Positions 8,463-54,992 of a stretch of 64,000 nt of DNA are shown one piece after another. The notes beneath the pieces are model-generated. The model saw only the letters and a list, made by a program, of their open reading frames with translations, ran no database searches and had not been told where the DNA came from. Each line of letters opens with the position of its first letter. The first letter of the stretch is position 1. This DNA is from an uncultured Pseudomonadales bacterium (GTDB lineage: Bacteria; Patescibacteriota; Microgenomatia; UBA1400; UBA12028), in assembly GCA_964509365.1 (NCBI GenBank), contig CAZDWN010000004.1, forward strand, positions 32,907 to 96,906. Direction: 5' to 3'. Position numbers and translations under genes: made by a program.

Positions 8463-8465
8463 ACT

Positions 8466-8903
8466 ATGGTATATCTTGGCGCCGATCACGGTGGATTCAC
8501 CCTCAAAGAAAAAATGAAGACCTGGCTCACCGAATGGAAAATCCCATACACTGATCTCGGTGCGTCTACAGTAGTTCCAGATGATGACTATCCAGAATTT
8601 GCGAAGCTCGTGGCACGAGAAGTGGCAAAAAACCCAAGCGAAGACAAAGGGATATTGGTTTGCCGCTCCGGTGGAGGTATGACAATCGTCGCCAATCGTC
8701 ATCCATCAATTCGAGCTGTGTATGTCTTTGATGAAGTCAGTGCTCGGCATGCCCGTGAACATAATGACGCCAACGTCGCAACATTTGCCGCAGATTGGAT
8801 CGAAGTGAATCTCGCCAAACAAGCCCTTTCCCAATTTTTGCAAACATCATTTCAACATGAATCACGACATGAACGCCGGATCGCTATGATGGGAACTGTA
8901 TGA
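8466..8903 (+). CDS. rpiB: Ribose-5-phosphate isomerase B
   Basis: GADHGG, CRSGGGM and ANRHPSIRA motifs of the RpiB/LacAB family. Confidence 0.85.
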   Translation: MVYLGADHGGFTLKEKMKTWLTEWKIPYTDLGASTVVPDDDYPEFAKLVAREVAKNPSEDKGILVCRSGGGMTIVANRHPSIRAVYVFDEVSARHAREHNDANVATFAADWIEVNLAKQALSQFLQTSFQHESRHERRIAMMGTV

Positions 8904-9547: not shown

Positions 9548-9573
9548 AAACTGTAAGCTAGAGTCTTGCCAGT

Positions 9574-11096: not shown

Positions 11097-11124
11097 TTTT
11101 CTGGTAGGATACCTGAAGTTCACT

Positions 11125-11820: not shown

Positions 11821-11980
11821 ACCTGCTTCGAAAAAAAAAGAAAAATGAAAAAGAGATTGAAGAAAAGGAATCTCAACCAAAATTGAGGAATAAGAAGTCT
11901 CAACTGCCGGATGTAGAAAAACCACGCGATCCAACTCGATGGTTGTCACTGCTCTTCTTACTCATCTTTCTCTTCTTGTC

Positions 11981-14269: not shown

Positions 14270-14341
14270 TTGATTTCAGATACTAGCAGGGGGAAAAAAG
14301 AAAAAAAAGGAGGAACTTATTGCAGGAACTGTCCAAATCTT

Positions 14342-15508: not shown

Positions 15509-15509
15509 G

Positions 15510-17861: not shown

Positions 17862-18332
17862 ACAAATTGGTTTCTTTTACTCGATGAAAATGGAAAAAGA
17901 CTCGTGTTGCTCTCGGTCACCTTATATGAGCGAGAGTTGCGGATGAAATCAACTCTCCAAGGATATTCTTTTTTAGTGTTTCCAATGGCAAAAGCGTTTG
18001 AAGGATTTATCAAACTCTATCTCAAACAAATGGGTCTCCTGAATCGACCAGATTATAATGATAGTAAGTTTCGGATCGGACGCGCCCTCAATCCTGATAT
18101 TTCTGAACAACATAAAGATGAGTGGTGGCTCTATGATGACGTCGTCAGGTCATGTGGAGAAAAAGTTGCCCGAGATTTGTGGGATGCCTGGGTCCAGTGT
18201 CGTAATCGAGTGTTTCATTACTATTTTAATCAAGAAACAGAAATGAATTTTGACCAAGCCACAAAAAAATTGGAACAGATGGCTCTAGCTATGGAGTCTG
18301 CGACACTGTGCCAAAAGCCTCAAATCAAGTGA
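17838..18332 (+). CDS. Hypothetical protein
   Basis: 164-aa ORF; alternative start at 17943. No family recognised. Confidence 0.4.
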   Translation: MQIKDFAHTNWFLLLDENGKRLVLLSVTLYERELRMKSTLQGYSFLVFPMAKAFEGFIKLYLKQMGLLNRPDYNDSKFRIGRALNPDISEQHKDEWWLYDDVVRSCGEKVARDLWDAWVQCRNRVFHYYFNQETEMNFDQATKKLEQMALAMESATLCQKPQIK

Positions 18333-24978: not shown

Positions 24979-25905
24979 CTAACTGCTTACAGGTGCTGGT
25001 GGTACTGGCGGTTTTAGGTCAGACTGAATCGATCCAACTTCCTCTGCAATGCTTGCTGGAGCACTCGTCGTCTTTGAATCAAATATCATTTGTGACGCGG
25101 GTTGTGGCGAAATCTGTGGTGTTGCTGCTGGCACAGCGGAAACAGTTGGCGTTGGAGCAGCTATCGGAGTCGGAGTTACTTGTGCTCGTGGTACTGTTGC
25201 GGTCACCATTTCTTGAGGAGGCAACTCTGCATTGACCAGAGGTGAAGAGTACTCTGCAGCTTCTCCGACTCTGATCCCTTTGGCCCCATCAGGATTGTAA
25301 ATGGTATAAAACAACTGAATCAGTTCCTGCGTCTTTACTTGTCGTAAGAATAGCCCGATGCGGGCGAACTGATGCATGAGATGCTCTCGTCGTGGCGCGA
25401 GATTGGTGAGAGCCTTTTCGACAATTGCCGCTTTATCAAGCGGAGCTTGGTTTTTTTTACTCATCCCAGGAATCAGTGTGGATCCCGAAAGAATTCCAGC
25501 TTCAAGGGCAGTATAGGTGATCACAATAAAGAATTTTTTGTCGAGGACGTTTCGTTCTTGCACGAGTTCTTCGACAAATTGTCGATAATCTTTAATATTT
25601 TTTTTGTTGATAGGATTATATGCTTTGATTTCAGCAGTCTTGAGAAGATCTAGATATGAAGTCACATCTTTTCGGACAGACCTAATCACGATTTCAATTG
25701 AAAATGAAAGAGAATTGAGGAGCGCAGCGTAGGCGTAAATTGCTGCATCTTGCTCTTGCTCGGAGTAAAGATCGAAGTTAATCGCACTTGATTGCATCAC
25801 CATTGATACCGAGCCATCTTGCAAGATAATACAATCATTACTGATATCAAAAAGCTCAAGATATTTTTGAGTCGTCGACTGGAGGGCATTCGTTTGATTG
25901 ATCAT
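24979..25905 (-). CDS. T4SS-associated hypothetical protein with Pro/Thr/Ala-rich C-terminal tail
   Basis: 308 aa, no TM. Sits between the PrgI-like and VirB4 genes with 4-nt and 12-nt spacing. Confidence 0.5.
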   Translation of the reverse strand: MINQTNALQSTTQKYLELFDISNDCIILQDGSVSMVMQSSAINFDLYSEQEQDAAIYAYAALLNSLSFSIEIVIRSVRKDVTSYLDLLKTAEIKAYNPINKKNIKDYRQFVEELVQERNVLDKKFFIVITYTALEAGILSGSTLIPGMSKKNQAPLDKAAIVEKALTNLAPRREHLMHQFARIGLFLRQVKTQELIQLFYTIYNPDGAKGIRVGEAAEYSSPLVNAELPPQEMVTATVPRAQVTPTPIAAPTPTVSAVPAATPQISPQPASQMIFDSKTTSAPASIAEEVGSIQSDLKPPVPPAPVSS

Positions 25906-27608: not shown

Positions 27609-30600
27609 CTAGTAACGTTGTGGAGCACAAGTAGATCCATCGGTAGGCCCACTCGGTTTTCCGTTGTCTTCAGGGAACATATGCACTTGCTCCCAAGCAA
27701 AGTGACTTGGATACGCACTGGCCATATTCATGCATTGACCGCCTAATCCGGGATAAGCTCGATTCATGTACGTCATATACACCGCGATCGATTCGGGAAA
27801 ATCCTCGACTACAGTTCCAGCTCCACCAAATGTATACGTTCGAAGATATCCCTCACTAAATGGACCACGGGTGAAATCTTGTACAAGGCTAGCATGGTTA
27901 TCTTCAATGACGTGTCCTGTCTCGTGAATGAGTGTAAAACGAATGTTGAGTATTGAGCTCGTAGCTGAGAACGTATTATCGAAAAGCGCAACAGTATTAT
28001 TCCCGAGGTATTGACCATACCATCTTGAGTCGGGCCCCACACTGCGACGAGTTAGTGTAACTGATCCGTGATCACATAAAATGTTTCGGTATGTGGGATA
28101 AGCTGCTGTGATGGCAAAGGCTTGGGTTAATTTTTGTTTCTCAATTTCAGACCATGATCCGTCTAGAACTAAGCAAGCGAGGTCATCTGGTGGATTTCCA
28201 AAGGAGACAGTAGCGCTTGTTGAAAATGTTTCACCTTGGGCTTGAGTTGCTCCAGATGAATTTTTGACATCAAATGTGACTGTAAGTACGTTTGATACTC
28301 GTGTGTCAGCGAAACTTGGATCGTACTTTATGGTGTATTCTTGAGTTGCAGTGGACTTAAACACGTCAAGTGGAGGAATCGTCGGAGCGACCGGGTGACC
28401 CTTTGAAGATATACTCACTGTATCAGTGGCATTGGTTATCGTGATCTGGTACGGTTGACCTTTTTCATCAACTTTCGGAGTGAGCTTTAAAGTGTATTTG
28501 ATAGATTTACTTGGAGTGAGGACGCTATTATCAGGATAGGAAGACTCACTCGGCTCCATGATTTTTGTGAGTTCGACATATCTTGAAGAGCCGATATCTT
28601 GTCCATCATTCGGAGTAATAAAAGAACCCGTCATTGCTGATGTGGCAATGAGAGCAGTTGCAGTCACGGTTGTAATGGTCCCGATGATCGTAGTAGCCAC
28701 AGGGAAAGATGCTGTGGTTCCTGGGAGAGCTCCAAGAAATGCATTTGTCCCACCTAATACATTTAGTCCGACTTTGCTCGCAGCAGCTTGCGTACCACTG
28801 AAGATATTCGCACCACTTTTTGCGGCAGCTGAGACCGTCTCAGGTCCGAGCTTGCTCATTGCAGTAAGTCCCTCTTTACCGAGGGTTGCAGTCGATCGAA
28901 TTCCTTCTAACGCTTTCGCTCCGTCTCCAATCCCATAGACGTTGGTCCCGATCATGTGAGCGACACTGGATCCACCAACTGGAATCAAAGATCCGATCGT
29001 CGTAACTCCGGCTCCAATAAATCCTCCTACCACAGTACCGACACCAGGGAAGATGTACGTTCCGATCAAAGCGCCTCCTGCAAATCCACCTGCGGCGCTC
29101 GTGAGTGCTCCGGCTCCAGTGGCTGCGCCTTGTGTAAATGCGTAGACAAGGCCGGCTCCAGTGGCGGCTCCTCCAGCTATGCCAGCTAGAGCCAGAGGAT
29201 TGGAGAGAATGCTCCGGGCGAGTTGGGCAGTCCGCTGCAGTCGACCGGAATTACTATTGATCTGGTTTACGCGGCTGTACGCCTCTCGTTGAGTCTGTGC
29301 TCGATCGGAGTCGTCTAACTGCGGTAGCTCTTGCGCATCGCCGCTACCAGCGAGTTCTATGGCTCCCAAAAGTTCGGCGATATTCTGATCTGCATTGAGC
29401 GGAACATTTTGTTCACCGAAGAGACTGAAAAATTGTCGCTTTTGCTGGCGCTGCTCTGCGTCACGACCAAGCGCAATATTTTCATAAAATTGCTCTTGCA
29501 GCGCGACTATGGTCGCCGCTTCTATGTATTGAGCTTGGAGCAACTCATCTTGCTTCCGTTGTTCCGCAAGTATTTCGACCGCTTCTTCTCGCACTTCACT
29601 AATTGTTTTGCGCTTTTTAATTTCTTGGGCGATTCCATCTCTTTCTTTGCGAGTTTGCTCAAGGGGAGTGGTCAACAGCTTATGATACGTCTCATCCTTT
29701 GGTACAGATGTCTTCAGCTCTGCCATTTGCTCGATGAGTTGTGCTTTGGCTTTTCTGATCTCGCTAGAAAGTTTGCTATTTCCAAAGTCATTGAGATCTT
29801 CAAAAACAGGAATTTTACCTGATTTTTTGAGCAAACTCTTCCGGGCTCGTAGTCGTAAAGCTTCGAAATAGGTGGGGAATGTGATCGCGAATTGAGGATT
29901 TGCGAGCGCCACCTCTTTGGTCAATTGAGCCAGCAATTGAGGAGGCACAGACTCAAAATATGCCGTAACGGTGGCGTACGTCTCGATGTATTCAAGTCGC
30001 CTAGGGTCAGACTCAAAGAACTTCTCTAATGTGGCTGGAGTACTGGAAGTAGCAACGGATTCTTGATTTTGTGATGACGCACGAGTCTTCGCGACTGCTT
30101 GGGAGGCGATATACAGTTCACTGAGTAGAGCTTCTGGAAGTCTCCTGACTGATCGAGAAAGTATTTTATCGATCTCTGCGGGGGTGAGAGATGTCCCTCG
30201 TTTCTCCGTCTCTTCTTCAATCAAATTCTTTGCGACGAGAAACTCGACATCCTCATTGGTGATTGTCCGTTCATCCGCCCCATTGCGCCTGCGCAGCGAG
30301 TTTATGATCGCTGCGCGCATGTCATATGCTTGCTTCAACTGCGCTTTTACGGCTTCATACTCTTTCTTGTCCATCGACTCAAGGTCAAGTTTATTCAAGC
30401 TACGAAATAACGTTTCAAAATCTGGGACAGGTGCGTTGATATCCATGCCATACATGAGAAGCAATCCATCATTGATGGCTTCGGCACGGGCCTTGTTGAT
30501 CTTTTCTCGACGTTCTTCATATGACCCAAACCCAGAAGTGTCTCCGTCTTTGTGTTCACTTGAACTGGTACGGCTTCCAGAGGGAAGAAAAGGCAAGGTT

Positions 30601-40351: not shown

Positions 40352-42280
40352 TCAGTTGCCCCAATCATCATCACTGAATGGTAAAGGATTTGAATTTGAA
40401 CTGCTGCTGCCTTTTCCGCCTGAACCGCCTTTGTTCTGAGCTTCCGTGACTTTAGTAAGCTTATCAAGTTGCTTCGACACGTTATCTGGATCGAACAGCT
40501 GCCCATCACGAAGTCTATCAATAGTCTTAGAGACGGTAAGTCCTTTACTCCAACCAGAAGGAATATTTCTTCGCAGACCGCCTCGATCATTTCCGCGTGC
40601 ATCTTTGGCACCACTCCATATTCCGGAGAGCACTCCTTCTCCTGAACGTCGGCCATAATATGCACCCAGGGCTGCTCCAGAAATTGCTCCACCAGCAACG
40701 CCGATTGCTGGAGCTGCATATTCATTTCCGGCCGCCAATTTATTCACGAGATCTTTCGGTGAGACATCGATCTTGCCTTTCATTATGCCCTTGGTGAGCT
40801 TAAGCACTTCCGGCATTGCCAATATAGCGCCTAGCGCCAAGAGATCCTGATAATAGGCAAATCCGCCCCCTTGGTTACTGCCAAGCTGCGGAGCAGAGAA
40901 ACCGCCACTATTTGCGACTTGTCCACCTCTGGCTATGTAGTAAGCAATAAAAATAAGCAGAACTAACACTGGGAACACCATTAAGTTTTCAAGAAGTCCT
41001 TTTAGCCATGATCCAAAAGTATTCTGACCAGGTAGTGCTCCAAGCAGAAGTTGGATAGGAGCAAAAATTACTGAGAAGAAAATACCCAAGTATGCTTGGA
41101 GTAATGCAAAGAACACTCGGAACAGGGAAACTATAATTGCCACAATCAAGATCAACATAAAAATTAAACTAGCTCCAAAAGTCACCACACCTGCGACCGT
41201 AGTATTCCATCCAAGATTAACGAGAATATTGGCTACAATTCTCCCCATGCTTTCAGAAATATTACTTGAAAGACTGGTCAACTTAATACCATTGGTAAAG
41301 ATGTCATTTCTAAATGCTACGTCCGAAAGTGACTGAGGCACACCTCCTGAGTTAATTTGTCCTCCGGGGAAGAGGCCGGTAAAGATCCCGATGATCAAAT
41401 ACATGACAAGGTACATAATGTCGATCAGTAGTCCTGCTATGGCATAGGAGAATGTCACAAGCAAAAGAGAGACGATGATCTTCGGGAGGGCCTGCTGCAC
41501 CGTAACTGCCGCCTGGCCACCGATCTTACTACGGAACATGATAAGAAAACCAATGACTAAGAAAATGATGACGAAGAAAAAGTAAGCTAAATTACGAAAC
41601 AATTTCCAGAGCTCAAGAACTGGGCTGAGCGCTGAGAACCCGAGACCCTGAGCGTACGCTGGTTGTGCTCCAAATGGGTTTTGGATGCTTTGGGCCACGT
41701 ACTGCATATATTCTCCAGTACTGGCTGGCTTATTGTATAGCTTGGCAACATATCCGATGGTTGCGTCAGTCACACCTCCGACTTGGACATAATAGTTCTC
41801 AGGTTTGCCTTCCGCGTTGAGTGCGGTCATTTGAGTTTTTATACCCCCAAGAGATACAATAAAATGAGCCTCCGCAGAGCAAAACATTGATGAACATGCT
41901 TTCTCCTCTGCATTTACAGTCATCGGTACGCCTCCTTCAAACGCTTGGGAGCTTTGTTTGCCACTAGTGGCTTGCTGGAGCGTGGCATTGAGCATTTGAA
42001 TGATGGTCGGTGGTGCTTTGGCAAATGCGCCAGGTGTATACGCTGATTGGCAGGTAGCTTGTTGACACTGAGCTAAGTTACCGTAGAAGGCTCCGGCGCC
42101 ACCTTGGGTACAAGAAACATACACCGGATACAAAGGGTCAGGCTGTCCGTTCGGTCCGGTTGGGTTACTGTGTGGCACGCAGTTTGCAGGGACCTGAGCC
42201 AACGCTTGAGTATGGATGCCAAAAGCAAAGAAGAAAATGAAGAGGCTTGCGATGAGGAAACGTGTCAGTCTCATACTCAT
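40352..42280 (-). CDS. VirB6/TrbL-like polytopic T4SS membrane protein
   Basis: Signal peptide. Cys-containing periplasmic N-domain. At least 6 TM helices in the middle. Gly-rich cytoplasmic C-terminal tail. Positioned in the T4SS locus. Confidence 0.68.
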   Translation of the reverse strand: MSMRLTRFLIASLFIFFFAFGIHTQALAQVPANCVPHSNPTGPNGQPDPLYPVYVSCTQGGAGAFYGNLAQCQQATCQSAYTPGAFAKAPPTIIQMLNATLQQATSGKQSSQAFEGGVPMTVNAEEKACSSMFCSAEAHFIVSLGGIKTQMTALNAEGKPENYYVQVGGVTDATIGYVAKLYNKPASTGEYMQYVAQSIQNPFGAQPAYAQGLGFSALSPVLELWKLFRNLAYFFFVIIFLVIGFLIMFRSKIGGQAAVTVQQALPKIIVSLLLVTFSYAIAGLLIDIMYLVMYLIIGIFTGLFPGGQINSGGVPQSLSDVAFRNDIFTNGIKLTSLSSNISESMGRIVANILVNLGWNTTVAGVVTFGASLIFMLILIVAIIVSLFRVFFALLQAYLGIFFSVIFAPIQLLLGALPGQNTFGSWLKGLLENLMVFPVLVLLIFIAYYIARGGQVANSGGFSAPQLGSNQGGGFAYYQDLLALGAILAMPEVLKLTKGIMKGKIDVSPKDLVNKLAAGNEYAAPAIGVAGGAISGAALGAYYGRRSGEGVLSGIWSGAKDARGNDRGGLRRNIPSGWSKGLTVSKTIDRLRDGQLFDPDNVSKQLDKLTKVTEAQNKGGSGGKGSSSSNSNPLPFSDDDWGN

Positions 42281-42322
42281 ATATTCTACACTAAATAATT
42301 CTCTAAAAAACAAGTGGAATAT

Positions 42323-45300
42323 TTAATACGTCGGTGCATAGAGTTCAATCGCGCATTCGCCATAGGTGAGGTTTACACCTGAAGCATTTGTACAGTTTGC
42401 ACTCGCATTCAAGATCTCACAGCTCCCATAATATGCGCCGGCTGCATTCATCCATTTCTTTTCTTCAGCGCTCGCATTCGGGTAGTTTGGAGAACAATTT
42501 GGATGAGCTTGCGCAGCGTAGTTGAATTTGAGCATTTGCGCACCGACTTTCAGAGACGCCAGCAAGTCACAAGGTGTTGATCCGGCGACTCCCGCCTGTG
42601 GCGAGTATGTACCCCAGTTGTCGTACGGTGCGCCGCACGCTTTTACCAAAACTTGCATTGCGCCGACAGCTCCGACACTGTTGGCTGTGCAGGCTACAGT
42701 AGTTTGATTATTTCTGTATGCTCGTAACGTGCTTCCACCTTCTATTTGGAGGACTCCCCAAAGATAATTGGCGGGGATACCGACACTTTGCGCTGCTTGC
42801 GCGACCAATGCTTTTAGAGGTCCCCAATCTCCGTCAGCGTGAGCTGGTAAGATTGTCGTCCCACTACAGAGAGAAGCGACAGGTGCACCAGGTGAAGAAG
42901 GCGTCCCGACTGCTCCTTGGGTACAAGCGGCAAGACCTTGCTGCAAGAATTTCTCAAATCCCGGATATTGGATCGTGGCTTTGCCGTTGTACGGTCGTGT
43001 CACATTGCAGACGACTTCCCATAGTGCTCGAGCGATTTTCCCTCCCGGGACTTGCGGATCGACGGTGACAGTTTTCTCAAGATTGAGTTGCCCTGAGAGC
43101 TTGCCATCGACAGTCTTTGTCCCTTGAGTGACTGTCCCATCAGGAAGAACGACTGGCGGGGCATTTGGATCTGGGATCGTGTAGCTCAGATCAGCTCCAT
43201 CAAATTTGGGATTGATGATGGATGTCGAGGAGCCAGTGATCTGTAGATATTTATAAGCTGCTTTTGGATTTGCAGCTCGCTCTGACTCGTACGTGATGAA
43301 ATTAAACTCTGGATGCTTGGTAATGTCTTGATAATCATAGGGAAGGAACGTCTGAAGGAACGGAGTCTCGTAGTCTGTAATGTTGCGATACTCTTCAGGC
43401 AACAATAAAAAGGTCTTAATGGTCCGATTGTCACTTCCGGGCTTGGTGGCGACCAAAGTCGCAGTCACTGGAATCTTTGCCAACTTCACAGGATCAAGCG
43501 TCCCCGCTGGGTTGATGGTGTGCACTCGTTCGGTCGCAGTCTCGCCGACCAAATCATCATGCGTACAAGCGTCTTGTCCACTCGTCGCGAACTCCGCATT
43601 GATGCGACGAACGATGGTAACTCTGGGAAGATACTCAGGGTTACTTTCCAAGATAGAGCAGCTCTCACATTTGATGCCGAGACCACTAGTTGCATTTGGC
43701 ATCGCTTTGATGAGTTTGTCGATCACAAGCGCACGTGTCTTGGCTATTTGAGTCTGGACGCTCATCGGCATGATGGAAGTGATCGTCTGCATGAATCCAC
43801 CAGTATAGGTGGGGAAGAACGTCGGCTGCTTTTCTTTTGGTTCCAGATCAGGATTGTTGTTCACTGCGTTGATATTGACCTCCGCAAATCCAGCAGGGAC
43901 ATAGACTTTGACGACTTTGATGCGATCAGTAAGGTTACGAGGATCACCGATGCCGCCATTTGCATCTTCTCCGGGAGCCAACCATACGACTCGTTTGTCG
44001 AGGTTGGTTTGCGGCGTCTCTGGTCGATCTACATAGTGGACTAAATATGCAGGTTTGAATCCTTTTGGTGTCGTCAACTCAACTTTTGAAAACGATCGAT
44101 ACCACGCCATCTCATTTTGAGTAAGCGTATCGACATTTCTGCAGCTAAAACTTTGCGGCATCTGCTCGAGGACTTTCTTATAAGTGTCGTACCTGGCATC
44201 GGCACCTGGAATTTGAGAGTAGAGTGCGCACTCTCCAGGGATCGGGGTAGGCTTTGGCGTTGCAGGGATATTTGCTGCAGCTTTCAATGCGTCGGCGTCG
44301 AGCTTGTCGTTGTAGGTGTATCCACTTCGATTGTTTTCGGTATCACACAGTTGCTTGATCGTCTGTAGATACGTAATCGTTGCTTGACACTGCTCTTGTG
44401 TCCCGATGACTTTTCTAGACACACCGTTTGCAAGCGGAGTAATCAGTGAGGAGCTCAGCGTATTTGCAGCTCCGACCAACTCTTCTTTGGTGTAGTTGGC
44501 ACTAAAAAATCCCTCAAGGTCGTCTAACCGTCTTTTTGGTTGATCGGGATTGGGGACTTGAGCGCCTTGAAAGCGAAACAGAGGAATGACGGCTTTGGTA
44601 CTATCGATGATGACATTGGCCCACACTCCAGGAATAGTGCATCTCCCATCAGGAGGATTTCCCGAGCAGTCAATCTCATACCCGGGTGGTCGATTGTTAA
44701 GTGCACTCTCATTTGAAATATCACCTTTTATTTTGAATTGATTACCACAAGTCAGCGTGTAGCCGGCCGCCATTTGACGCATTTTGTCGACATCTGGAGC
44801 CATATCTTCGATACCAGGGTAGACAAAGACCTGTCGTTTTCCTCCTCCACATTTCTCGGGTTTTTCGACTGCGAGATCGCCTTGGTGCCAATACTCACAG
44901 ATGGCAGGGACGGTATGATACCAATCGCTGTTGCCAGGGTCTGGGCTCGTTGGATTTCGCAAAAAACCCACCTTGGCGACGGCAGGCTGATCATTATTTT
45001 GAACGTAAAAGTCTTGGACACAATCAAAGTCCTTACAAGTCGTGATCCCGAACTCGGTGATATAGAGTTGGGCAGTGGATAAATTGCGTCCAGCGAGGCT
45101 ATTTATTTTACTTAAGACCCACTGACCACTGTTGACTGTGCATCGGGTCGCTTCATACGCGCCACATCCGCCGGTTTGATAAACGTTTGCAAATACGGCG
45201 CTAATCGCTGCTTTGTTTATTCCGGATGAAAAAATTTGATTGAGTGTTGTCGCGGCGTCATAATCGTCATTGATCGTATCCATGGTCGAGATGCCAAGTG

Positions 45301-45793
45301 GGCCTTTGCCATTCCAAGCAGAAGCAAATGTGTTAAAAAGCTGGGCATACTTTGTATAGTCACAATTCTTCCATTCACCATTGACTGGGTTTTGGTTATT
45401 TATTTCGTTACCGATGGTCACCGGTGTGCCGGCGGGGATTGCTCCAGCGAGCGTCGTCATGTCTTGTGTACTTGTATTGCAGTCAATATTGATACGAGCG
45501 ATCGCCAAGTATCCGCTTGAGAGGAGACTGACACCGGATCCATTCGGATAGACCATCACCACGACGGGGTAGGTGGGGCTTTTTAATCCTGAAGAAGTTA
45601 ACTTGTCTAAGACCTTTTTTTGAGCACCCTCATCACCTTGAATGAGGTGAGTACCGACTTTATCGACTTGAGTAGTTCCTTGGGCCCTGGTCGCAGTTGA
45701 GTCAAATAAAAACAGCCCTACGGCGAGGAGCAAAATGGGGAAGAAAAAGGCAAACGCACGGCAGAGTCGTCGCATGAATATAGTATACAACAC
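42323..45793 (-). CDS. Giant (1156 aa) secreted cell-wall hydrolase. N-terminal clan GH-A glycosidase-like domain plus C-terminal lysozyme-like/lytic transglycosylase (VirB1-like) domain.
   Basis: Signal peptide. IGNEIN (acid/base NE) and LYITEFG (nucleophile TE) about 110 aa apart. C-terminal LQIEGG...GAVGAMQV resembling SLT motifs (ES...GLMQ). Confidence 0.65.
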   Translation of the reverse strand: MLYTIFMRRLCRAFAFFFPILLLAVGLFLFDSTATRAQGTTQVDKVGTHLIQGDEGAQKKVLDKLTSSGLKSPTYPVVVMVYPNGSGVSLLSSGYLAIARINIDCNTSTQDMTTLAGAIPAGTPVTIGNEINNQNPVNGEWKNCDYTKYAQLFNTFASAWNGKGPLGISTMDTINDDYDAATTLNQIFSSGINKAAISAVFANVYQTGGCGAYEATRCTVNSGQWVLSKINSLAGRNLSTAQLYITEFGITTCKDFDCVQDFYVQNNDQPAVAKVGFLRNPTSPDPGNSDWYHTVPAICEYWHQGDLAVEKPEKCGGGKRQVFVYPGIEDMAPDVDKMRQMAAGYTLTCGNQFKIKGDISNESALNNRPPGYEIDCSGNPPDGRCTIPGVWANVIIDSTKAVIPLFRFQGAQVPNPDQPKRRLDDLEGFFSANYTKEELVGAANTLSSSLITPLANGVSRKVIGTQEQCQATITYLQTIKQLCDTENNRSGYTYNDKLDADALKAAANIPATPKPTPIPGECALYSQIPGADARYDTYKKVLEQMPQSFSCRNVDTLTQNEMAWYRSFSKVELTTPKGFKPAYLVHYVDRPETPQTNLDKRVVWLAPGEDANGGIGDPRNLTDRIKVVKVYVPAGFAEVNINAVNNNPDLEPKEKQPTFFPTYTGGFMQTITSIMPMSVQTQIAKTRALVIDKLIKAMPNATSGLGIKCESCSILESNPEYLPRVTIVRRINAEFATSGQDACTHDDLVGETATERVHTINPAGTLDPVKLAKIPVTATLVATKPGSDNRTIKTFLLLPEEYRNITDYETPFLQTFLPYDYQDITKHPEFNFITYESERAANPKAAYKYLQITGSSTSIINPKFDGADLSYTIPDPNAPPVVLPDGTVTQGTKTVDGKLSGQLNLEKTVTVDPQVPGGKIARALWEVVCNVTRPYNGKATIQYPGFEKFLQQGLAACTQGAVGTPSSPGAPVASLCSGTTILPAHADGDWGPLKALVAQAAQSVGIPANYLWGVLQIEGGSTLRAYRNNQTTVACTANSVGAVGAMQVLVKACGAPYDNWGTYSPQAGVAGSTPCDLLASLKVGAQMLKFNYAAQAHPNCSPNYPNASAEEKKWMNAAGAYYGSCEILNASANCTNASGVNLTYGECAIELYAPTY

Positions 45794-45799
45794 CTCACC

Positions 45800-46213
45800 T
45801 TAGAGGGAGATCTTAAACTGAGTAAGCGCGGTGATGCCAGTGAAATCGGAGATGAATCGCAAGATGACATAGGAAGCCAAGGCGACCACAATTCCAATGA
45901 TCGCATACGTAATCGCGTTTTTCCCAGCGTCGATCCCTTTGCTATTGGATCCTGCAGTCATGTATTGAAAAGAACCCATGAGGAACATAATAAATGCCGC
46001 TATCCCGATGATCGTGATAAAGACAGCAAGCACGTTTGACACCAGACAGCCAATGCCCTGAATCGTGGCGACATCTGCTGCCGCCGTGGATGTACCGACA
46101 CACGCACCGGTCCACGCAGTTGTCTGTGCTTGAGCTCTCGGTACAATCGAAAGCACAAAAGCAATCAGTGACGAGAAGTAGGCGGTTTGGAATATTTTTC
46201 GATTTGTCATCAT
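45800..46213 (-). CDS. T4SS pilin-like protein (TrbC/VirB2-type, PF18895-like), paralog 1
   Basis: Signal peptide (MMTNRKIFQTAYFSSLIAFVLSIVPRAQA), then two hydrophobic helices flanking a short polar loop (YMTAGSNSKGIDAGKNAI). Confidence 0.7.
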   Translation of the reverse strand: MMTNRKIFQTAYFSSLIAFVLSIVPRAQAQTTAWTGACVGTSTAAADVATIQGIGCLVSNVLAVFITIIGIAAFIMFLMGSFQYMTAGSNSKGIDAGKNAITYAIIGIVVALASYVILRFISDFTGITALTQFKISL

Positions 46214-46250
46214 AGCAAGATTATAGCATTCCCGAGGTCGACTGCGTATC

Positions 46251-46278
46251 AAAAAAGCCCCCGGGGATACCGGGGGCC
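46251..46278 (-). terminator. Rho-independent terminator downstream of pilin paralog 2
   Basis: 8-bp GC stem (GCCCCCGG/CCGGGGGC) followed by a T6 run on the minus strand. Confidence 0.65.
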
Positions 46279-46300
46279 TTCTCATCACACCAATCAACAA

Positions 46301-46690
46301 TTAATATGCTGATGGGAGAGTGATGTTTGTTCCAATTGAAATTCCGAAGAAGTTCTGCAGCACAACTGAGATTGCCAATGCTGACGCAACAATCGCCAAA
46401 CCAATGATTGCATTGGTGATCTTTTGTCGAGCACTTTCAGTCTTACTCTTGTCTCCGCCAGCGGTCAGCCACTCAATACCACCCCAGATGAGGTAGATGA
46501 ACACCAACAAGCCGACGATACCGAGAGTGAACTTCAACAGCGAACTGATCAGTTTCCCGATGTCGTTGATCTTAAAGCCAGCTCCTGCGGCGTCGACGTT
46601 GATTGGAGTATCAACAGCGAATGCTGTTGAGGCTGCAAGTGCGAGAGTCGTGACACCTGTCGAAATCCCAGTGATTAATTTTTTGACCAT
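46301..46690 (-). CDS. T4SS pilin-like protein, paralog 2
   Basis: Signal peptide, then helix-WLTAGGDKSK-loop-helix (IYLIWGGIEWLTAGGDKSKTESARQKITNAIIGLAIV). Confidence 0.75.
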   Translation of the reverse strand: MVKKLITGISTGVTTLALAASTAFAVDTPINVDAAGAGFKINDIGKLISSLLKFTLGIVGLLVFIYLIWGGIEWLTAGGDKSKTESARQKITNAIIGLAIVASALAISVVLQNFFGISIGTNITLPSAY

Positions 46691-46776
46691 AGCATTCTCC
46701 TTTATAGAATATCGATATGCTACTAATGATATTCTATCATACTAGGGGAGGTAAAGGGGGGAATCAAGGGTGGATT

Positions 46777-47451
46777 TTACTGACAGCCTCGGATGTCCAC
46801 ACCAGGAAGTAGTGTCGTCCCGCCCAAACAGCCACATGGCTCAAGATGCGGATAGTTGAGGCCTCCCGCTCCAGCTGGCATACAGCGGACCGAGGCAGCT
46901 CCACTGTTTGAACAATAGCCGCCGGCACCGTTGTCACTGACAGTACTTCCAATAGCAATATTCCCGGCACACGTGTTCGCGACTGGCGTCGTCCCTGTAG
47001 TAGTGTTGCTTCCTCCTGGGGCAGGTTGCGTGGTGGTCGTCCCACCTCCTCCATTGCCTCCGCCGATGGTGACTTTGGTCGAAAGACCAAGGAAATTTAT
47101 GAGTATCGTATAGAACACGAATACGCATGCAAGGATGGCTAAGCCAATAATCGATTGCGTGATGCGACTGCGTCCTGCTTCGATCTTTGCTTTATCGCCC
47201 CCAGAGAGCAACCACTCTGCGCCGCCCCAAATAAGATAGACGAACAGAATAAAGCCACTGATGCCTGCGACCCACTTTGAGACGGAGCCAAGGAGTATTC
47301 CAAGATTTGAGACGAGATACCCAGACGTCGCCGGGGCAACGGTCACGGAATCATCATAGCCAGGAGGAAGTCCTTGCGCAGTGATCACACTTGGCAGAAA
47401 AATAGCACTGCCAATCAGAATTGCCAAAATAAGTGTGAACTTTTTTATCAT
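46777..47451 (-). CDS. T4SS pilin-like protein, paralog 3, with Gly/Thr- and Cys-rich C-terminal extension
   Basis: Pilin core VYLIWGGAEWLLSGGDKAKIEAGRSRITQSIIGLAIL plus about 100 aa G/T/C-rich tail. Confidence 0.72.
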   Translation of the reverse strand: MIKKFTLILAILIGSAIFLPSVITAQGLPPGYDDSVTVAPATSGYLVSNLGILLGSVSKWVAGISGFILFVYLIWGGAEWLLSGGDKAKIEAGRSRITQSIIGLAILACVFVFYTILINFLGLSTKVTIGGGNGGGGTTTTQPAPGGSNTTTGTTPVANTCAGNIAIGSTVSDNGAGGYCSNSGAASVRCMPAGAGGLNYPHLEPCGCLGGTTLLPGVDIRGCQ

Positions 47452-47456
47452 AGAGA

Positions 47457-47819
47457 CTAGGCTCTGTACTCATGCGTTGGAATACTTCCCATTCCGTAGT
47501 TGCCGATGTTAAATCGTGTGCGCAGACCAAGGAAATTGAGAACAAGCCCAAAGATCAAGAAGACGGATGCCAATATGACGAGTCCGATCACGCCCTGCGT
47601 CATCATACCTCGTGCTTCTTCGATCTTTCCTTTCTCTCCTCCAGCAGTAATCCAGCTAAATGCACCGTAGAGTAAGAAGTAGAGGACGGCGATCGTCCCA
47701 ACCGTGAGAATGGCGCTTGCGCCAATTTGTAACAATTGATCTAGAGTGCCAATAGGAGATATCAGCGCAGTTGATCCGCCAATGTTGAGTGGTTGAGTCT
47801 GGGCAAGCAGTATAAACAT
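47457..47819 (-). CDS. T4SS pilin-like protein, paralog 4
   Basis: Core LYGAFSWITAGGEKGKIEEARGMMTQGVIGLVIL. Confidence 0.72.
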   Translation of the reverse strand: MFILLAQTQPLNIGGSTALISPIGTLDQLLQIGASAILTVGTIAVLYFLLYGAFSWITAGGEKGKIEEARGMMTQGVIGLVILASVFLIFGLVLNFLGLRTRFNIGNYGMGSIPTHEYRA

Positions 47820-47830
47820 AAAACTACTTT

Positions 47831-48169
47831 CTATACATTATTCGCAAATTGTAGATTCAATAGATCGATTCCTAATACTTTGCCTACGAAGACGCTGATC
47901 GCAACGGTGCCCGCTAGGACGAGCATACCGATGACACTTTGAGTCATGCGATCTCTGGCTGCCTGTACTTTGCCTTTTTCACCACCCGCAGTGATCCATT
48001 CAAGTGCCCCAATGATCAACATAATAAGGAGTGCTAAGCCACCGAGAGTGATTGCCGTTCGCCAGAGCGTAATGATGATACTGGCCAGAGCCGTGCTCGG
48101 AGCGGCGGCAGCAGAACCAAAAACAGGAGCGACGGCCGGGTTGGTAATCTGTGCAATAAGTGTAAACAT
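47831..48169 (-). CDS. T4SS pilin-like protein, paralog 5
   Basis: Core IIGALEWITAGGEKGKVQAARDRMTQSVIGMLVL. Confidence 0.72.
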   Translation of the reverse strand: MFTLIAQITNPAVAPVFGSAAAAPSTALASIIITLWRTAITLGGLALLIMLIIGALEWITAGGEKGKVQAARDRMTQSVIGMLVLAGTVAISVFVGKVLGIDLLNLQFANNV

Positions 48170-48173
48170 ACAT

Positions 48174-48548
48174 TTACCTCGGTAAAATTGTTCCTATCAT
48201 TTTCACTGGGTCAAGTAAATCTATGCCAAGTACTCTGCCAACGACACCGGCAATACTATAAGCAGCGATCACTACGACAAGTCCAAGTGCGGCTTGAGTC
48301 ATCTGGTTGCGAGCCGCTTCGACTTTGCCTTTGTCCCCACCAGCTGTAATCCAGGACAGACCAGCAAAGATCAAGTAAATCAAAAACATGATACCGGCGA
48401 GACCAGTGACGAATCCAATGATATTACTGATGAAAAGGGCAATTGGCGTGCCCACACCAACTGCACCTGCGCCAGGAGAAAAAACCGCGGTAGGTGGATC
48501 TAGTTGACCAAGTTGAAGTGTGCCTGCGGCTGCAAGTAGTTGTGACAT
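48174..48548 (-). CDS. T4SS pilin-like protein, paralog 6
   Basis: Core IFAGLSWITAGGDKGKVEAARNQMTQAALGLVVV. Confidence 0.72.
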   Translation of the reverse strand: MSQLLAAAGTLQLGQLDPPTAVFSPGAGAVGVGTPIALFISNIIGFVTGLAGIMFLIYLIFAGLSWITAGGDKGKVEAARNQMTQAALGLVVVIAAYSIAGVVGRVLGIDLLDPVKMIGTILPR

Positions 48549-48551
48549 ACA

Positions 48552-48908
48552 TTATGGCAATGCCGTCGGGATTGTCGGCCTAAGAATAAACATAGAATCA
48601 CCAAACAAAAGCAAACTCACGAGCGCTGTTATTAAGAATGCACCCGCGATAATCACGAGACCAATCAAACTGTACGTCATCTGATTCATGGCCTGTTCAG
48701 TGGCTTTCGCATTCCCGCCTGAACTTAAATACGTGTAACCGGCCGAGATAATATTGAATAGTCCAAAAAGACCGGCGACTACGGTAACGAGTTTAATGAT
48801 ATTTGAGATAAAGACCAATAGTCCCGCCGGACCGGGTGTGAACTTATCTACTCCTGGCGGGGTAGTCACTGAGCCAAATATTTGAAAAACCATGAAGCTA
48901 AGCATCAT
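48552..48908 (-). CDS. T4SS pilin-like protein, paralog 7
   Basis: Core ISAGYTYLSSGGNAKATEQAMNQMTYSLIGLVII. Confidence 0.68.
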   Translation of the reverse strand: MMLSFMVFQIFGSVTTPPGVDKFTPGPAGLLVFISNIIKLVTVVAGLFGLFNIISAGYTYLSSGGNAKATEQAMNQMTYSLIGLVIIAGAFLITALVSLLLFGDSMFILRPTIPTALP

Positions 48909-48920
48909 ATGTATTTTGTA

Positions 48921-49274
48921 TTATAGCGTCGCATTCAATATTGGTACACCGGTGAATGCCTGAACGATCTGAATAATCCAATACGCAGCAAAAATAATGA
49001 TAAAACCGATGATCGCTCCCATGATCTGATTCTTGCCAGATTCCACGCTCTTGGCATTGCCTCCGGAGGCAACGATCGAAAAGCCGCCACCGATTATCAG
49101 GAAAAGCAGTACCAACCCGGAAATGACAAAGATGATGGGGATCAAGAGATTGAGAAACGATGCGACAGAAGGATATGAGCTGGCAATTGTGCCACCTTTT
49201 TCATTGATTTTGAGCATGGTCCCCAGGCTCTGTGCCGGTGCTCCATTTCCACTGCCTAAAGCAAGTAAACTCAT
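48921..49274 (-). CDS. T4SS pilin-like protein, paralog 8
   Basis: Core IIGGGFSIVASGGNAKSVESGKNQIMGAIIGFIII. Start at MSLLALGS (49274), avoiding overlap with the divergent sigma gene. Confidence 0.65.
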   Translation of the reverse strand: MSLLALGSGNGAPAQSLGTMLKINEKGGTIASSYPSVASFLNLLIPIIFVISGLVLLFLIIGGGFSIVASGGNAKSVESGKNQIMGAIIGFIIIFAAYWIIQIVQAFTGVPILNATL

Positions 49275-49290
49275 ACCAGTAGTATACAAT

Positions 49291-49854
49291 ATGTTCATGC
49301 AGTTTAGAAATGAGCAAGACCTCATCGTAAAGCTCAAGGCGGGCGAAAGTTCGAGCGTCAACATCTGGTATGCGACCTCAAAAGACGAGTTACTTGCATT
49401 TTTCCTCAAGAGAATGAGTAGTGAAGCTGATGCGCAGGAGCTCGTCCATGATACGTATCTGTCTTGTCTTTCTTCGCTTCCACTTTTTCGTGGTGATTCC
49501 GGATTATGGACATTTATGGTGTCGATTGCTCGTCACGAGCTCGCTGACTACTGGCGCAAACGATACGCCAAGAAAGCTATTGCGCTTTTACCGTTTGGGC
49601 AAGAACTTCTTGATTCCGTCGAGGGTGATGCTGATGAGCACTCCTGGGTACTCGATCACGGGCGGGAAATATCCCATATCCTGCATCAATTACCTGAGGA
49701 AATCTCAGAATTGCTGCAACTCAAATATGTCGACGGCTTGTCTGTAAAAGAGCTTGCGACTCACTACGGGTTGAGTTTTGCGGCGATGCAAAGTAAATTG
49801 CATCGAGCCAAAGCGGTATTTAAAGAACAGTATGAACGAACCACAATTTCTTGA
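49291..49854 (+). CDS. ECF-type RNA polymerase sigma factor (sigma-70 regions 2 and 4)
   Basis: Region 2 ELVHDTYLSCL...ARHELADYWRKRY. Region 4 LLQLKYVDGLSVKELATHYGLSFAAMQSKLHRAK. Start at Met 49291, not the tool's 49033. Confidence 0.8.
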   Translation: MFMQFRNEQDLIVKLKAGESSSVNIWYATSKDELLAFFLKRMSSEADAQELVHDTYLSCLSSLPLFRGDSGLWTFMVSIARHELADYWRKRYAKKAIALLPFGQELLDSVEGDADEHSWVLDHGREISHILHQLPEEISELLQLKYVDGLSVKELATHYGLSFAAMQSKLHRAKAVFKEQYERTTIS

Positions 49855-52831: not shown

Positions 52832-53416
52832 CTACAAGATGCTGATTCCAAAAATAGTTTGCACCAGTTGTGCGATCCAATAGGAGGAGAAGAGCAAAAT
52901 AAAGCCGATGATCGCTGCATTGATGCGCTGTTTCCCCGCTTCTTGAGATTTCGGATTCGCTGCTCCAGTCAACATCTCAAATCCTCCCCATATCAACATA
53001 ATAAACAGGATCAACCCTCCAAATGTCATCAAATAGGGAAGCAATCGGCTGAGAATTCCACGAGGAGTGGTCAAATCTGCATTTGGCGTCCCTCCAAAAA
53101 TTGATGCATTTAAACTGTCCAATGTCGCCGCATTAAGACCAACGCCTCCTCCTCCAGGTGCTTGACCAAATTGTTGGCAAAGCTGAGATGGTGTGGGTGG
53201 GCCGCAATAATACGCAGTGGTTCCGTCGGGGCACGTAGTCGTTTGAAGCGTACAAGTCGCTGGAATTGGATTACCGTTTGGACCAGTAATCGTCTGCAGG
53301 CAGGTAATTGGAGCAGTTGACCAGCTACCACAATTTCCTGCTGCGGCGCTGACTCGTTGAGTAGTTGAAAGAAGGACGAGTAAGGCAAGTACGCAGCTAA
53401 TACAGAATCTTCTCAT
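52832..53416 (-). CDS. T4SS pilin-like protein, paralog 9, with Cys-rich N-terminal extension
   Basis: Signal peptide, about 100 aa Cys/Pro-rich region, then pilin core LIWGGFEMLTGAANPKSQEAGKQRINAAIIGFILL. Confidence 0.7.
   Translation of the reverse strand: MRRFCISCVLALLVLLSTTQRVSAAAGNCGSWSTAPITCLQTITGPNGNPIPATCTLQTTTCPDGTTAYYCGPPTPSQLCQQFGQAPGGGGVGLNAATLDSLNASIFGGTPNADLTTPRGILSRLLPYLMTFGGLILFIMLIWGGFEMLTGAANPKSQEAGKQRINAAIIGFILLFSSYWIAQLVQTIFGISIL
52971..53039. repeat. Near-identical 69-bp segment (66/69) shared with 53596..53664
   Basis: caacatctcaaatcctccccatatcaacataataaacaggatcaaccctccaaatgtcatcaaataggg compared with copy 2. Flanks diverge but stay protein-similar. Confidence 0.8.
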
Positions 53417-53457
53417 ACCTGTAGCGTACAGGATTTTGCGTGCCTTGAAAAGCCGAT

Positions 53458-53799
53458 TTATAGAATAGAAATGCCGAAGATCGTTTGCACCAGTTGTGCC
53501 AACCAGTAAGACGAGAAGAGTAAGATAAAGCCAATGAGTGCCGACGTGATCCTCGATTTGCCTGCTTGTTGGGCTTTTGGGTCGGCAGCTCCTCCCAACA
53601 TCTCAAACCCTCCCCAGATCAACATGATAAACAGGATCAACCCTCCAAATGTCATCAAATAGGGGAGTAGTTCTGAGAGGATGCCTCTTGGCGTGCTAAA
53701 AGTAGTCGCCTTGGCTGCATCAGGTACGAGCTCAGTATTGAGAGCATCCAGACACCCCTTCGTCAACGTGTCACAGGCAGCTGCTATGAGATTTGGCAT
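53458..53799 (-). CDS. T4SS pilin-like protein, paralog 10 (recent duplicate of paralog 9 core)
   Basis: C-terminal 77 aa about 85 percent identical to paralog 9 (PRGILSELLPYLMTFGGLILFIMLIWGGFEML...). Confidence 0.7.
   Translation of the reverse strand: MPNLIAAACDTLTKGCLDALNTELVPDAAKATTFSTPRGILSELLPYLMTFGGLILFIMLIWGGFEMLGGAADPKAQQAGKSRITSALIGFILLFSSYWLAQLVQTIFGISIL
53596..53664. repeat. Second copy of the 69-bp near-identical segment
   Basis: See 52971..53039. Confidence 0.8.
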
Positions 53800-53822
53800 A
53801 TATAAGGGTATTTTACCATTCT

Positions 53823-54992
53823 TTATGTCCCAAAGCCTGGAATCTGGAGAATTGTCACTCCGATGAAGCGCAGAATGATGATCGAGAAAATGACAAACAA
53901 GAGACCCATGATCGCACTCGTGATCATTTCTTGCCCCTCTTTGACTCGCGTCGGATCGCCACTACTTGTCGTCAGTAGGAATGCGCCGTACAGGATTGAG
54001 AGAAGCACGAAGCCTCCGGAGATCCCCATGCCAATGCGAATGAAAGACGTGACAATGCCTTCCTTTGTTGTTCCCACACATCCAAACGCAGTCCAGTACT
54101 CCCCATTGTTAAAACAATTTTGGCATAGAGTCTTATCGTTACCGGTTGCCTGATCACACAAAACGAAAGGAGCCGCAGTCGTCCCTGTTCCTGAATTACC
54201 GTTTCCTGGATTTGTAGGGACTGTTGTCCCACTATTTGGATCATAGGCAAGATTAATTGAGCAGTATCCTTGGATTCCTCCAGCTTGAATTATCGAGATT
54301 GTTGTCGTTTTCAAAGGATCAATAGCGAACGATTTTGAGACAGTTCCGGAACTGCTTGTGAAATTACTAGAAAACTGGTACGTCGCACCCGTCTGTGCAA
54401 GACGAATCTGGTATGACTTGGAGTCTTTTATGCCGCTGGCGTTGTATGTCGTCGTAACCGAAGTTGTACTAGCAAGGATTGGATTTGGTGAATAGGCTAA
54501 ACTGCTGCAATCAGGAGTAATCACTGTGCTAGATATATCACTGATGCTGAACGCATTCTCAAACTTGCACAAATCTTGAGCTGTAGAGCCAATTGTTCCT
54601 CGCAGGACCAGGTAGTAGTCTGCAGACGTTCCGGCATTTGCAGGCTTTATCGTATCTATTGGCACTGGAGCTGTAACGGTCTTTCCATCAGTCGAAAGTG
54701 TGGCTGTTCTCTTTGAACAATAGCCGAATGTATCGCCATTCAAACATGCCCAAATTTCAAAATTAGACGCGGTTGACTGCCAATTTGGCGTTGTTGGGGT
54801 AAAAGTGAATTGAACGTTTGAACCCGGCCCGTAGTCTGCAGGTACTGTTGAATCGGAAGAATAAGTCTTTGTCGTCCCAGCAGCTGGACTCAAAGAACAG
54901 TTAAAAACCTGAGCAGAAACAATGTAATCGGAGTGCAAGAAAACAAGAGACAGAATCAAGACTACAAAGATAGCTTTTATTTTGGCCCCCAT
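53823..54992 (-). CDS. Large pilin-like protein (389 aa). Signal peptide, about 280-aa Ser/Thr/Cys-rich extracellular domain (adhesin-like), C-terminal T4SS-pilin module.
   Basis: C-terminus LLSILYGAFLLTTSSGDPTRVKEGQEMITSAIMGLLFVIF matches the pilin core pattern. Eight-plus Cys in the N-domain. Confidence 0.62.
   Translation of the reverse strand: MGAKIKAIFVVLILSLVFLHSDYIVSAQVFNCSLSPAAGTTKTYSSDSTVPADYGPGSNVQFTFTPTTPNWQSTASNFEIWACLNGDTFGYCSKRTATLSTDGKTVTAPVPIDTIKPANAGTSADYYLVLRGTIGSTAQDLCKFENAFSISDISSTVITPDCSSLAYSPNPILASTTSVTTTYNASGIKDSKSYQIRLAQTGATYQFSSNFTSSSGTVSKSFAIDPLKTTTISIIQAGGIQGYCSINLAYDPNSGTTVPTNPGNGNSGTGTTAAPFVLCDQATGNDKTLCQNCFNNGEYWTAFGCVGTTKEGIVTSFIRIGMGISGGFVLLSILYGAFLLTTSSGDPTRVKEGQEMITSAIMGLLFVIFSIIILRFIGVTILQIPGFGT

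Follow-up and report, generated by a model that had tools for sequence, protein, structure and literature searches.

The gene examined here lies on the reverse strand of a 64,000-nucleotide stretch (the window) of contig CAZDWN010000004.1, from an assembly that its Genome Taxonomy Database lineage places in the Patescibacteriota, Microgenomatia. [quoted passage not shown]

The T4SS of Patescibacteria resembles the monoderm MPF-FATA type, is without a relaxase and often also without a coupling protein, has VirB2-like pilin arrays, especially in Microgenomatia and Saccharimonadia, with pilins that average about 25% identity to each other, and often lies near dnaA (PMC12102498). VirB1 homologues are rare near virB4, and in the survey of 3,035 genomes most of those with VirB2 pilins have no detectable VirB1; in Microgenomatia, VirB6 is seldom found, "suggesting extreme sequence divergence" (PMC12102498). 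The importance of the present family is to be seen in the context that in Southlakia epibionticum, the only Patescibacterium in which this was tested, epibiotic growth requires the T4SS cluster and its pilin array (PMC10633639), and that the role of these systems is called "completely unknown" (PMC11665869).

Results and Discussion

The C-terminal domain (C-domain; the coordinates of all features are collected in Table 1) is predicted to adopt a lysozyme-like fold of the glycoside hydrolase family 23 (GH23)/soluble lytic transglycosylase (SLT) type. An AlphaFold2 (AF2) calculation on an alignment of 27 relatives gives a mainly helical model with a predicted local distance difference test score (pLDDT) of 97.1 and a predicted template modelling score of 0.92. 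When this model is compared with the PDB by means of Foldseek, all 50 best neighbours are GH23 proteins, among them phiKZ gp144, MltF, phi6 P5, MltE, MltC, Slt, g-type (goose-type) lysozymes and a GH23 chitinase. The E-values start from 0.016, the probabilities are mostly >=0.9 (range 0.60-1.00), and the template modelling scores are about 0.4-0.5.

The candidate catalytic residue E1018, located in the motif LQIEGG, is invariant in all 27 relatives, as are two cysteines, and the pattern of the family can be written as ...P..LLWGI..IEG ... C..N..GA.GPMQ ... CD...L..AA ... Y.AA..YYG. Further along the chain, GAMQV (aa 1044-1048) and AYYG (aa 1120-1123), for which the family consensus is GAxGPMQ ... 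YYG/YNG/YHG, may be read from the alignment as the SLT motifs II (GLMQ) and III (AYNxG), the former being aligned by HMMER as well. The two best PDB sequences for a profile of the C-domain family are MltC proteins (E=0.014 and 0.1), in which the catalytic (I/T)ES is aligned with IEG and GLMQ with GPMQ. The Pfam model SLT (PF01464) is matched at E<=10 by 14 of the 27 relatives, the best at 5e-5, and by the C-domain of the window protein not at all at that threshold, so that the PF01464 cut-off is not reached. Since it is only the relatives that match this model, the homology with SLT is transitive rather than direct, but it is coherent. The model, the GH23 neighbours, the MltC match and the Pfam matches of the relatives together support the VirB1/SLT-like domain that a first-pass annotation, made from the letters of the window, had placed at this end of the protein.

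The N-terminal domain (N-domain) is predicted to be a (beta/alpha)8 barrel resembling those of clan GH-A. The AF2 model is confident over aa 45-315, with block means of the pLDDT of about 80-90, and displays eight beta/alpha repeats (beta1-alpha1 to beta8). The top Foldseek matches in the PDB all belong to clan GH-A, namely to GH128, GH79, GH10 (including Kemp-eliminase derivatives), GH86, GH51 and GH5, the best of them being the GH128 structure 6uax with E=6e-5. Strand 4 of the model (aa 125-127) directly precedes the Asn-Glu pair N129-E130, which is part of IGNEIN (aa 127-132), and strand 7 (aa 243-250) contains E247, part of LYITEFG (aa 243-249). The (beta/alpha)8 fold, the Asn-Glu pair after strand 4 and the Glu in strand 7, by which clan GH-A is recognized, are thus all present in the predicted model. 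The placement of E130 and E247 is judged here from the strand positions in the model.

The conservation of these residues is uneven. E130 is invariant in all 65 relatives of the N-domain and N129 is found in 61 of them; E247, in a strand-7 TEF or TEY, is kept in 47. One subclade (for example P0008, P0014, P0016, P0019 and P0021) has HF[GEAQN]G[WL]G in place of this motif and keeps the GNE, and the alignment there reads as a nucleophile that is either lost or moved. The first-pass annotation had taken IGNEIN and LYITEFG as the acid/base and nucleophile pair of a GH-A glycosidase about 110 residues apart; the pair and the domain are borne out by the barrel and by the location of both residues in it, and the distance between E130 and E247 is 117 residues. 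The other two motifs it had quoted, LQIEGG and GAMQV, are also found at the positions claimed.

At the sequence level, the N-domain stands apart from the families it resembles. Its identity to the GH128 structures is 10-16%, and the GH128 Pfam model PF11790 gives a weak match in one of 24 relatives (E=0.005, below membership significance) and none for the window protein itself even at E<=10. Profiles of the N-domain built from 9 and from 24 sequences give only chance matches among PDB sequences. Judged on the predicted model, the fold of the domain and the arrangement of its catalytic residues are thus those of GH-A, but by sequence it belongs to no described GH family, and substrate specificity is not transferable at the clan level.

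The situation is similar for the whole protein. Pfam and NCBIfam give no relevant match, the sole Pfam line being TNP-like_GBD at E=0.026, which we consider to be noise, and a phmmer search against all PDB chains returns nothing. As no curated model matches the window protein, the evidence for both domain assignments is the predicted structure, the conservation of the motifs and a homology that is transitive. The first-pass annotation had staked its reading on a family hit, on predicted folds and on conserved catalytic Glu residues; the folds and the conservation are found, and a match to a Pfam or NCBIfam family is not.

The open reading frame (ORF) of 1156 aa is, as annotated at first, the longest frame at this location, and it begins with a GTG. 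The true start is probably the ATG at 45775 (M7, MRRLCR), because the resulting length of 1150 aa is that of the NCBI-derived protein P0001, which is 100% identical to the window protein, and because all homologues in the alignment of close relatives start with MRx. The protein has one hydrophobic stretch, confined to its N-terminus, where the AF2 model of the whole protein has a helix at aa 2-28 and the homologues have AxA-like sites at the matching position. This fits a Sec-exported protein, with the segment acting either as a presumably cleaved signal peptide or as an anchor.

Between the two domains lies the core that defines the family, where the first-pass annotation had rightly seen more than 500 aa of Cys-containing sequence. 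It comprises about 645 aa with the motifs LLPEEYRN, PGGxLARxLW and YxGFE, and all of its 12 cysteines are invariant in an alignment of 11 sequences. No meaningful Pfam, NCBIfam or PDB match is obtained for the core, and a profile of the whole alignment gives only chance matches against the PDB. The mean pLDDT of the whole-protein model is 52, and most of the core is below 50, i.e. there is no confident model of it. A Pro/Ser/Gly/Ala-rich linker of low complexity connects the core to the C-domain.

The properties of the core raise the option that the protein is chiefly structural, with the core as a wall-spanning scaffold, a stalk or a pilus-associated adhesin, and with terminal domains that mainly bind glycans and are in some cases catalytically dead. 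The invariant cysteines, of the disulfide type, the fact that the core is the best conserved part among close relatives, and the N-domains without the beta-7 Glu are all in line with such a role. However, all catalytic residues are intact in the window protein, and the invariance of E130 and E1018 in all relatives examined is hard to explain by binding alone, and we therefore consider the structural option unlikely.

We now consider the family to which the protein belongs. A word-indexed search finds only 11 relatives, with identities of 35-100%, and the same kind of search with the N-domain profile adds only one further protein. A profile search of 1.84 billion cluster representatives, on the other hand, gives 136 clusters, 87 of them at E<=1e-10 and 35 at E<=1e-30. 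The members are mostly 1.1-1.4 kaa long, and the distant ones, unlike the close family, match mainly over the N-terminal ~290 and the C-terminal ~190 profile positions. The named records with relatives are metagenome-assembled genomes of Candidatus Woesebacteria and of the "Patescibacteria group"; one relative's record that is labelled Pseudomonadales is probably mis-binned. No paper describing this family was found in the literature.

The terminal domains turn out to be exchanged within the family. P0006, which is 52% identical to the query over the 72% covered, has a different domain in the N-terminal slot, and that domain has its best PDB sequence matches in three beta-mannanases of GH5 (E=0.0025-0.027), with ELANEP in the aligned part. 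The presence of a second GH-A domain in this slot argues that the slot serves a glycosidase function. In P0018, the N-terminal ~300 aa also constitute another domain in place of the GH-A-like one. At the other end, seed hidden Markov models (HMMs) distinguish types A (35 proteins, including that of the window), B (37) and C (8), with many others unassigned, and the N- and C-domain types combine freely. Types B and C share the motif ".P..L......E[SG]". An hhalign comparison of the three types aligns only the helix-plus-Glu motif (P 0.004-0.08, probability <10%), and Pfam gives on types B and C just two sub-threshold touches to SLT/SLT_2, for which reasons we regard it as unproven that all C-termini are lysozyme-like. 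P0009 (1450 aa; positions 8001-12353 of locus L002) has an additional NAGPA (phosphodiester glycosidase, PF09992) domain before a C-terminal region that contains E-[TS]-G; this would be a third glycan-directed head on the same core.

The second line of evidence is the location of the gene. It directly follows the VirB2-like pilin array in all seven related loci, down to 35% identity, and in the window the gap to the last pilin gene is 6-24 bp, in agreement with the first-pass annotation, which had noted the array beside the gene. With an HMM built from the pilins of the window, six of the seven loci are seen to have 7-8 pilin genes in tandem, the last of them just ahead of the target gene. In L007, the remaining locus, one pilin is found; it lies 1 kb upstream of a match whose first query residue is 322. 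The four annotated loci, L001-L004 (54% to 35% identity), share the order ECF sigma factor, 7-8 pilins, target homologue, a gene for 584-667 aa and a convergent gene for ~880-1100 aa. Because the position of the extracytoplasmic function (ECF) sigma factor is kept in these four loci, we suggest it to be a dedicated regulator of the pilin/hydrolase operon. A scan of a genome collection, which relied on two exact peptide patterns, gave 3 loci only.

On the other side, the gene is followed by that of a 653-aa protein, for which the label VirB6 had been given at first. It is indeed a polytopic membrane protein, and it has no Pfam or NCBIfam match, so that the VirB6 identity is not confirmed by any family model and the protein is listed here as a candidate divergent analogue.

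The synteny speaks against the option that the protein is a general wall-remodelling or polysaccharide-scavenging exoenzyme that works independently of the T4SS and is next to the pilins by coincidence. Many glycoside hydrolases for nutrient acquisition are encoded by Patescibacteria (PMC11665869), and the window itself also has GH18, SpoIID and penicillin-binding protein (PBP) genes. A coincidence is nevertheless very improbable in view of the seven out of seven loci with the same arrangement, of the 584-667-aa gene that comes next in all four annotated loci, with very short gaps throughout, and of the architecture of 1.1-1.4 kaa that is kept in the 136-cluster family.

Table 1. Features of the target gene and of its operon in the window (positions are those of the window).
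Feature	Residues	Position	Strand	Basis or remark
Whole ORF	1-1156	42323..45793	-	Longest frame, 1156 aa from GTG at 45793; stop codon 42323-42325
N-terminal hydrophobic segment, MRRLCRAFAFFFPILLLAVGLFLF...ATRA/QG (slash, putative cleavage site)	7-38	45680..45775	-	Sec signal peptide or signal anchor
N-domain, clan GH-A-like (beta/alpha)8 barrel, nearest GH128	45-315	44849..45661	-	
Asn-Glu acid/base pair after strand beta-4 (candidate)	129-130	45404..45409	-	AF2 model and conservation
E247, candidate nucleophile within strand beta-7	247	45053..45055	-	AF2 model and conservation
Family-defining core, about 645 aa	316-960	42914..44848	-	Most conserved part of the close-relative alignment
Low-complexity Pro/Ser/Gly/Ala-rich linker, core to C-domain (GAVGTPSSPGAPVASL)	roughly 959-974	42872..42913	-	Coordinates correspond to aa 961-974
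C-domain, GH23/SLT-like lysozyme fold (predicted)	975-1156	42326..42871	-	AF2, Foldseek, profile, Pfam on relatives
E1018, candidate catalytic Glu (LQIEGG, aa 1015-1020)	1018	42740..42742	-	Invariance; aligned with the MltC Glu motif
GAMQ, putative counterpart of SLT family-1 motif II (GLMQ)	1044-1047	42653..42664	-	Alignment
Eight tandem VirB2-like pilin genes (PF18895)		45800..49409	-	5 above the PF18895 cut-off, 3 just below; directly upstream of the target gene
653-aa polytopic membrane protein, candidate divergent VirB6 analogue		40352..42313	-	About 6 hydrophobic segments; start codon 9 bp past the target stop codon
ECF sigma factor		49321..49854	+	Divergent from the pilin operon; same position in loci L001-L004

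Proposed Function

The mechanism that we favour is the following. The conserved Cys-rich core would carry two interchangeable glycan-cleaving heads and position the protein at the pilus or the secretion apparatus. From the folds and the conserved residues we infer the catalytic activity and the substrates of the heads: the N-terminal one, with N129-E130 and E247, would probably cleave a beta-linked polysaccharide other than peptidoglycan, e.g. a wall-associated glycan or an exopolysaccharide (EPS), and the C-terminal one, with E1018, GAMQ and AYYG, would cleave the MurNAc-GlcNAc backbone of peptidoglycan. Together, they would open a local passage through the cell wall for the pilus or the T4SS, which is the job of VirB1 in diderms and of PrgK, TraG (pIP501) and TcpG in monoderms.

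A number of points weigh against this proposal. The Foldseek E-values are modest for both domains (6e-5 and 0.016), and the window protein itself has no sequence match in Pfam, NCBIfam or the PDB. The residue after E1018 is a Gly, not the Ser of the family-1 lytic transglycosylases. The beta-7 Glu is missing in 18 of the 65 N-domain relatives, and glycosidase activity is therefore not universal across the family. The core makes up more than half of the protein, is its best conserved part among close relatives, and may carry the main function. Finally, the gene is not next to virB4, and the link to the T4SS machinery is one that we infer from gene context.

A further issue is whose wall would be opened. 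One alternative is that the protein is a self-directed assembly factor only, i.e. a strict equivalent of VirB1 or PrgK, anchored at its N-terminus, whose C-domain cuts the peptidoglycan of the producer itself and whose N-domain cuts the producer's secondary wall polymer or EPS, so that pilus and channel can be built. PrgK and TraG have an N-terminal hydrophobic segment, and such a segment is present in the target protein too. The location of the gene between the pilins and a polytopic membrane protein would be natural for an assembly factor, and among the 47 larger ORFs of the window that were scanned there is no SLT, CHAP, NlpC, M23 or canonical VirB1 protein that could be assigned this role instead. 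Wall hydrolases with several domains are also known from monoderm T4SSs (PMC12102498). However, the chemistry of a cell's own wall should be stable within a lineage, yet cores that are 50-55% identical carry different N-domains (GH5-like in P0006), C-domains of at least three types exist, and the NAGPA domain is an addition in P0009. Swapping of heads is seen more typically in proteins whose target varies, and a purely self-directed role is in our view possible but not favoured.

The modular exchange of catalytic heads on a conserved core would fit a lysin or depolymerase directed at a host, which, on the T4SS pilus or released near it, would digest the peptidoglycan of the host as well as its capsule or wall glycan. 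In a manner similar to that of virion-associated phage lysins, it would thereby open the way for the epibiont to the host membrane or to nutrients. Among the closest GH23 structures are the virion-associated phiKZ gp144 and phi6 P5, the gene is beside a pilin array of the hypervariable kind, and it has been proposed that lytic transglycosylases of Patescibacteria compromise the envelopes of hosts (PMC11665869). This scenario too can be given only tentatively, since the epibiont lifestyle of the present organism is an assumption, the protein has no recognizable binding or adhesin domain, and Sec export alone would put it into the producer's own wall.

The favoured reading of an envelope-breaching enzyme of the pilin operon can accommodate both directions. 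The conserved placement in the operon fits the producer's wall, and the head-swapping beside hypervariable pilins, together with the kinship to phage lysins, fits the wall of a partner. Because of the head-swapping, we lean slightly towards the host, or both, over the producer only.

A more far-reaching version, which we find rather doubtful, is that the core is a new pilus- or channel-associated T4SS module that presents interchangeable "drill heads" (GH-A-like, GH5-like, at least three C-terminal types, and NAGPA) to the partner cell, so that the family and the hypervariable pilin array would together set which host envelopes can be penetrated. If true, this would be a host-range device without a described counterpart in any T4SS.

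Surroundings in the Window

The genes for VirB4, a TrsD-like protein and PrgI are at 23.0-27.0 kb, about 15-20 kb from the target gene (about 17 kb in the case of virB4 and PrgI). The TrsD-like gene is a 308-aa ORF at 24979-25905 (-), directly upstream of VirB4. This ORF weakly matches TrsD/TraD as well as VirB4 models in their N-terminal part; a TrsD-like component has been reported for Patescibacteria T4SSs, and the ORF may represent it. The location of dnaA and dnaN at 4441-7344 (+), the former about 37 kb from the target gene, puts the beginning of the window close to the replication origin. Both the VirB4/PrgI genes, at 23-27 kb, and the pilin operon, at 40-49 kb, are found within about 45 kb of the origin, in agreement with the location near the origin that is reported for T4SSs in Patescibacteria (PMC12102498).

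A second pilin cluster, at 52832-54992 (-), comprises a pair of small pilins of PF18895 together with a protein of 389 aa that resembles pilins only weakly, in its C-terminal part (E=0.005, below the cut-off). It is separated from the main array by the housekeeping genes for a NUDIX protein, an amino-acid kinase and undecaprenyl-diphosphate synthase.

Two other giant ORFs are present in the window, neither with a Pfam or NCBIfam match. The one at 36637-40257 (+), of 1206 aa, occupies the position that is held by the convergent ORF of ~880-1100 aa in four homologue loci, and it may therefore belong to the same system. The other, at 27609-31238 (-), has 1209 aa. Both were considered as paralogues of the target protein and rejected, as there is no similarity to it.

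Among the remaining genes, at 11981-17861 (-), a chitinase-like gene of GH18 lies between the genes for two PBPs of class A (transglycosylase plus transpeptidase), and a SpoIID gene is also within the window. A HEPN/RNase LS-like ORF is located at 17838-18332. The tmRNA gene at 60214-60616 (-) has an unusually long predicted tag peptide (28 residues, ATKVSNAVAFVKSLFDFSPVTSNVYATA) and adjoins smpB at 59725-60171 (+).

Significance

The family is a concrete candidate for the missing wall-opening activity of the Patescibacteria T4SS. Multi-domain wall hydrolases associated with T4SSs are known already; what is new here is an unannotated family of 136 clusters, with named members from Patescibacteria, in which more than half of each protein is unexplained. 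Its predicted GH23 domain is cryptic to current HMMs, is fused to a second putative glycosidase, and is encoded by what is always the next gene after the pilin array in the loci examined. For experiments, the protein offers two small, separately expressible domains with clear candidate catalytic residues and a large conserved core without a known fold, and the domain swapping constitutes a natural experiment that can be correlated with hosts. If the enzyme is host-directed, it would make the way in which ultra-small epibionts breach their hosts directly accessible at the molecular level.

Comparison with Known Systems

The C-domain has a predicted fold in common with VirB1, Slt70, MltC, MltE, MltF and goose-type lysozyme. 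With family 1 of the lytic transglycosylases and GH23 it shares the invariant Glu at a helix end, after a hydrophobic xPxxLLxGI, followed by GxMQ and then by (A/S)Y(Y/N/H)G. Unlike the family-1 enzymes, it has Glu-Gly instead of Glu-Ser and a Cys-rich insertion between the Glu and the GxMQ. The virion-associated lysins phiKZ gp144 and phi6 P5 are its top structural neighbours. Lysins of this virion-associated kind attack the target cell wall from the outside and often form a single module within a large structural protein of many domains; the present gene, in contrast, has chromosomal housekeeping neighbours and no phage context, and its product would be exported by Sec rather than assembled into a virion.

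The N-domain is most similar to the GH128 beta-1,3-glucanases, with which it shares a compact (beta/alpha)8 barrel of about 250-270 aa, the Asn-Glu after beta-4 and the Glu in beta-7, but not a family-level sequence match. Another clan GH-A enzyme, PslG (GH39), is a single-domain protein encoded in an EPS-synthesis operon, whereas the target gene is not flanked by EPS-synthesis genes.

The closest parallels for the protein as a whole are PrgK (pCF10), TraG (pIP501) and TcpG (pCW3), which likewise are large exported proteins in a T4SS gene set that combine an SLT/lysozyme-like domain with a second wall-degrading domain, and the presumed role, the local opening of a thick wall, is also the same. 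The second domain in those proteins is a CHAP/NlpC-P60 or LytM peptidase, whereas here it is a predicted clan GH-A glycosidase; Pfam and NCBIfam detect no peptidase domain in the window protein, so that it lacks the SLT-plus-peptidase combination of the monoderm T4SS hydrolases. The order of the domains, GH-A, core and GH23, with an unrelated 645-aa core between the heads, is different as well, and so is the genetic setting, as the gene is encoded with the pilins and not beside virB4. As far as Pfam and NCBIfam cover the TrsG, CD419 and VirB1-type families, the window protein has no match to them. Because of the different second domain, the different order, the large unrelated core and the lack of a sequence match, the protein is not a member of the VirB1, PrgK, TraG or TcpG families; judged by analogy, it is a putative functional analogue of all four.

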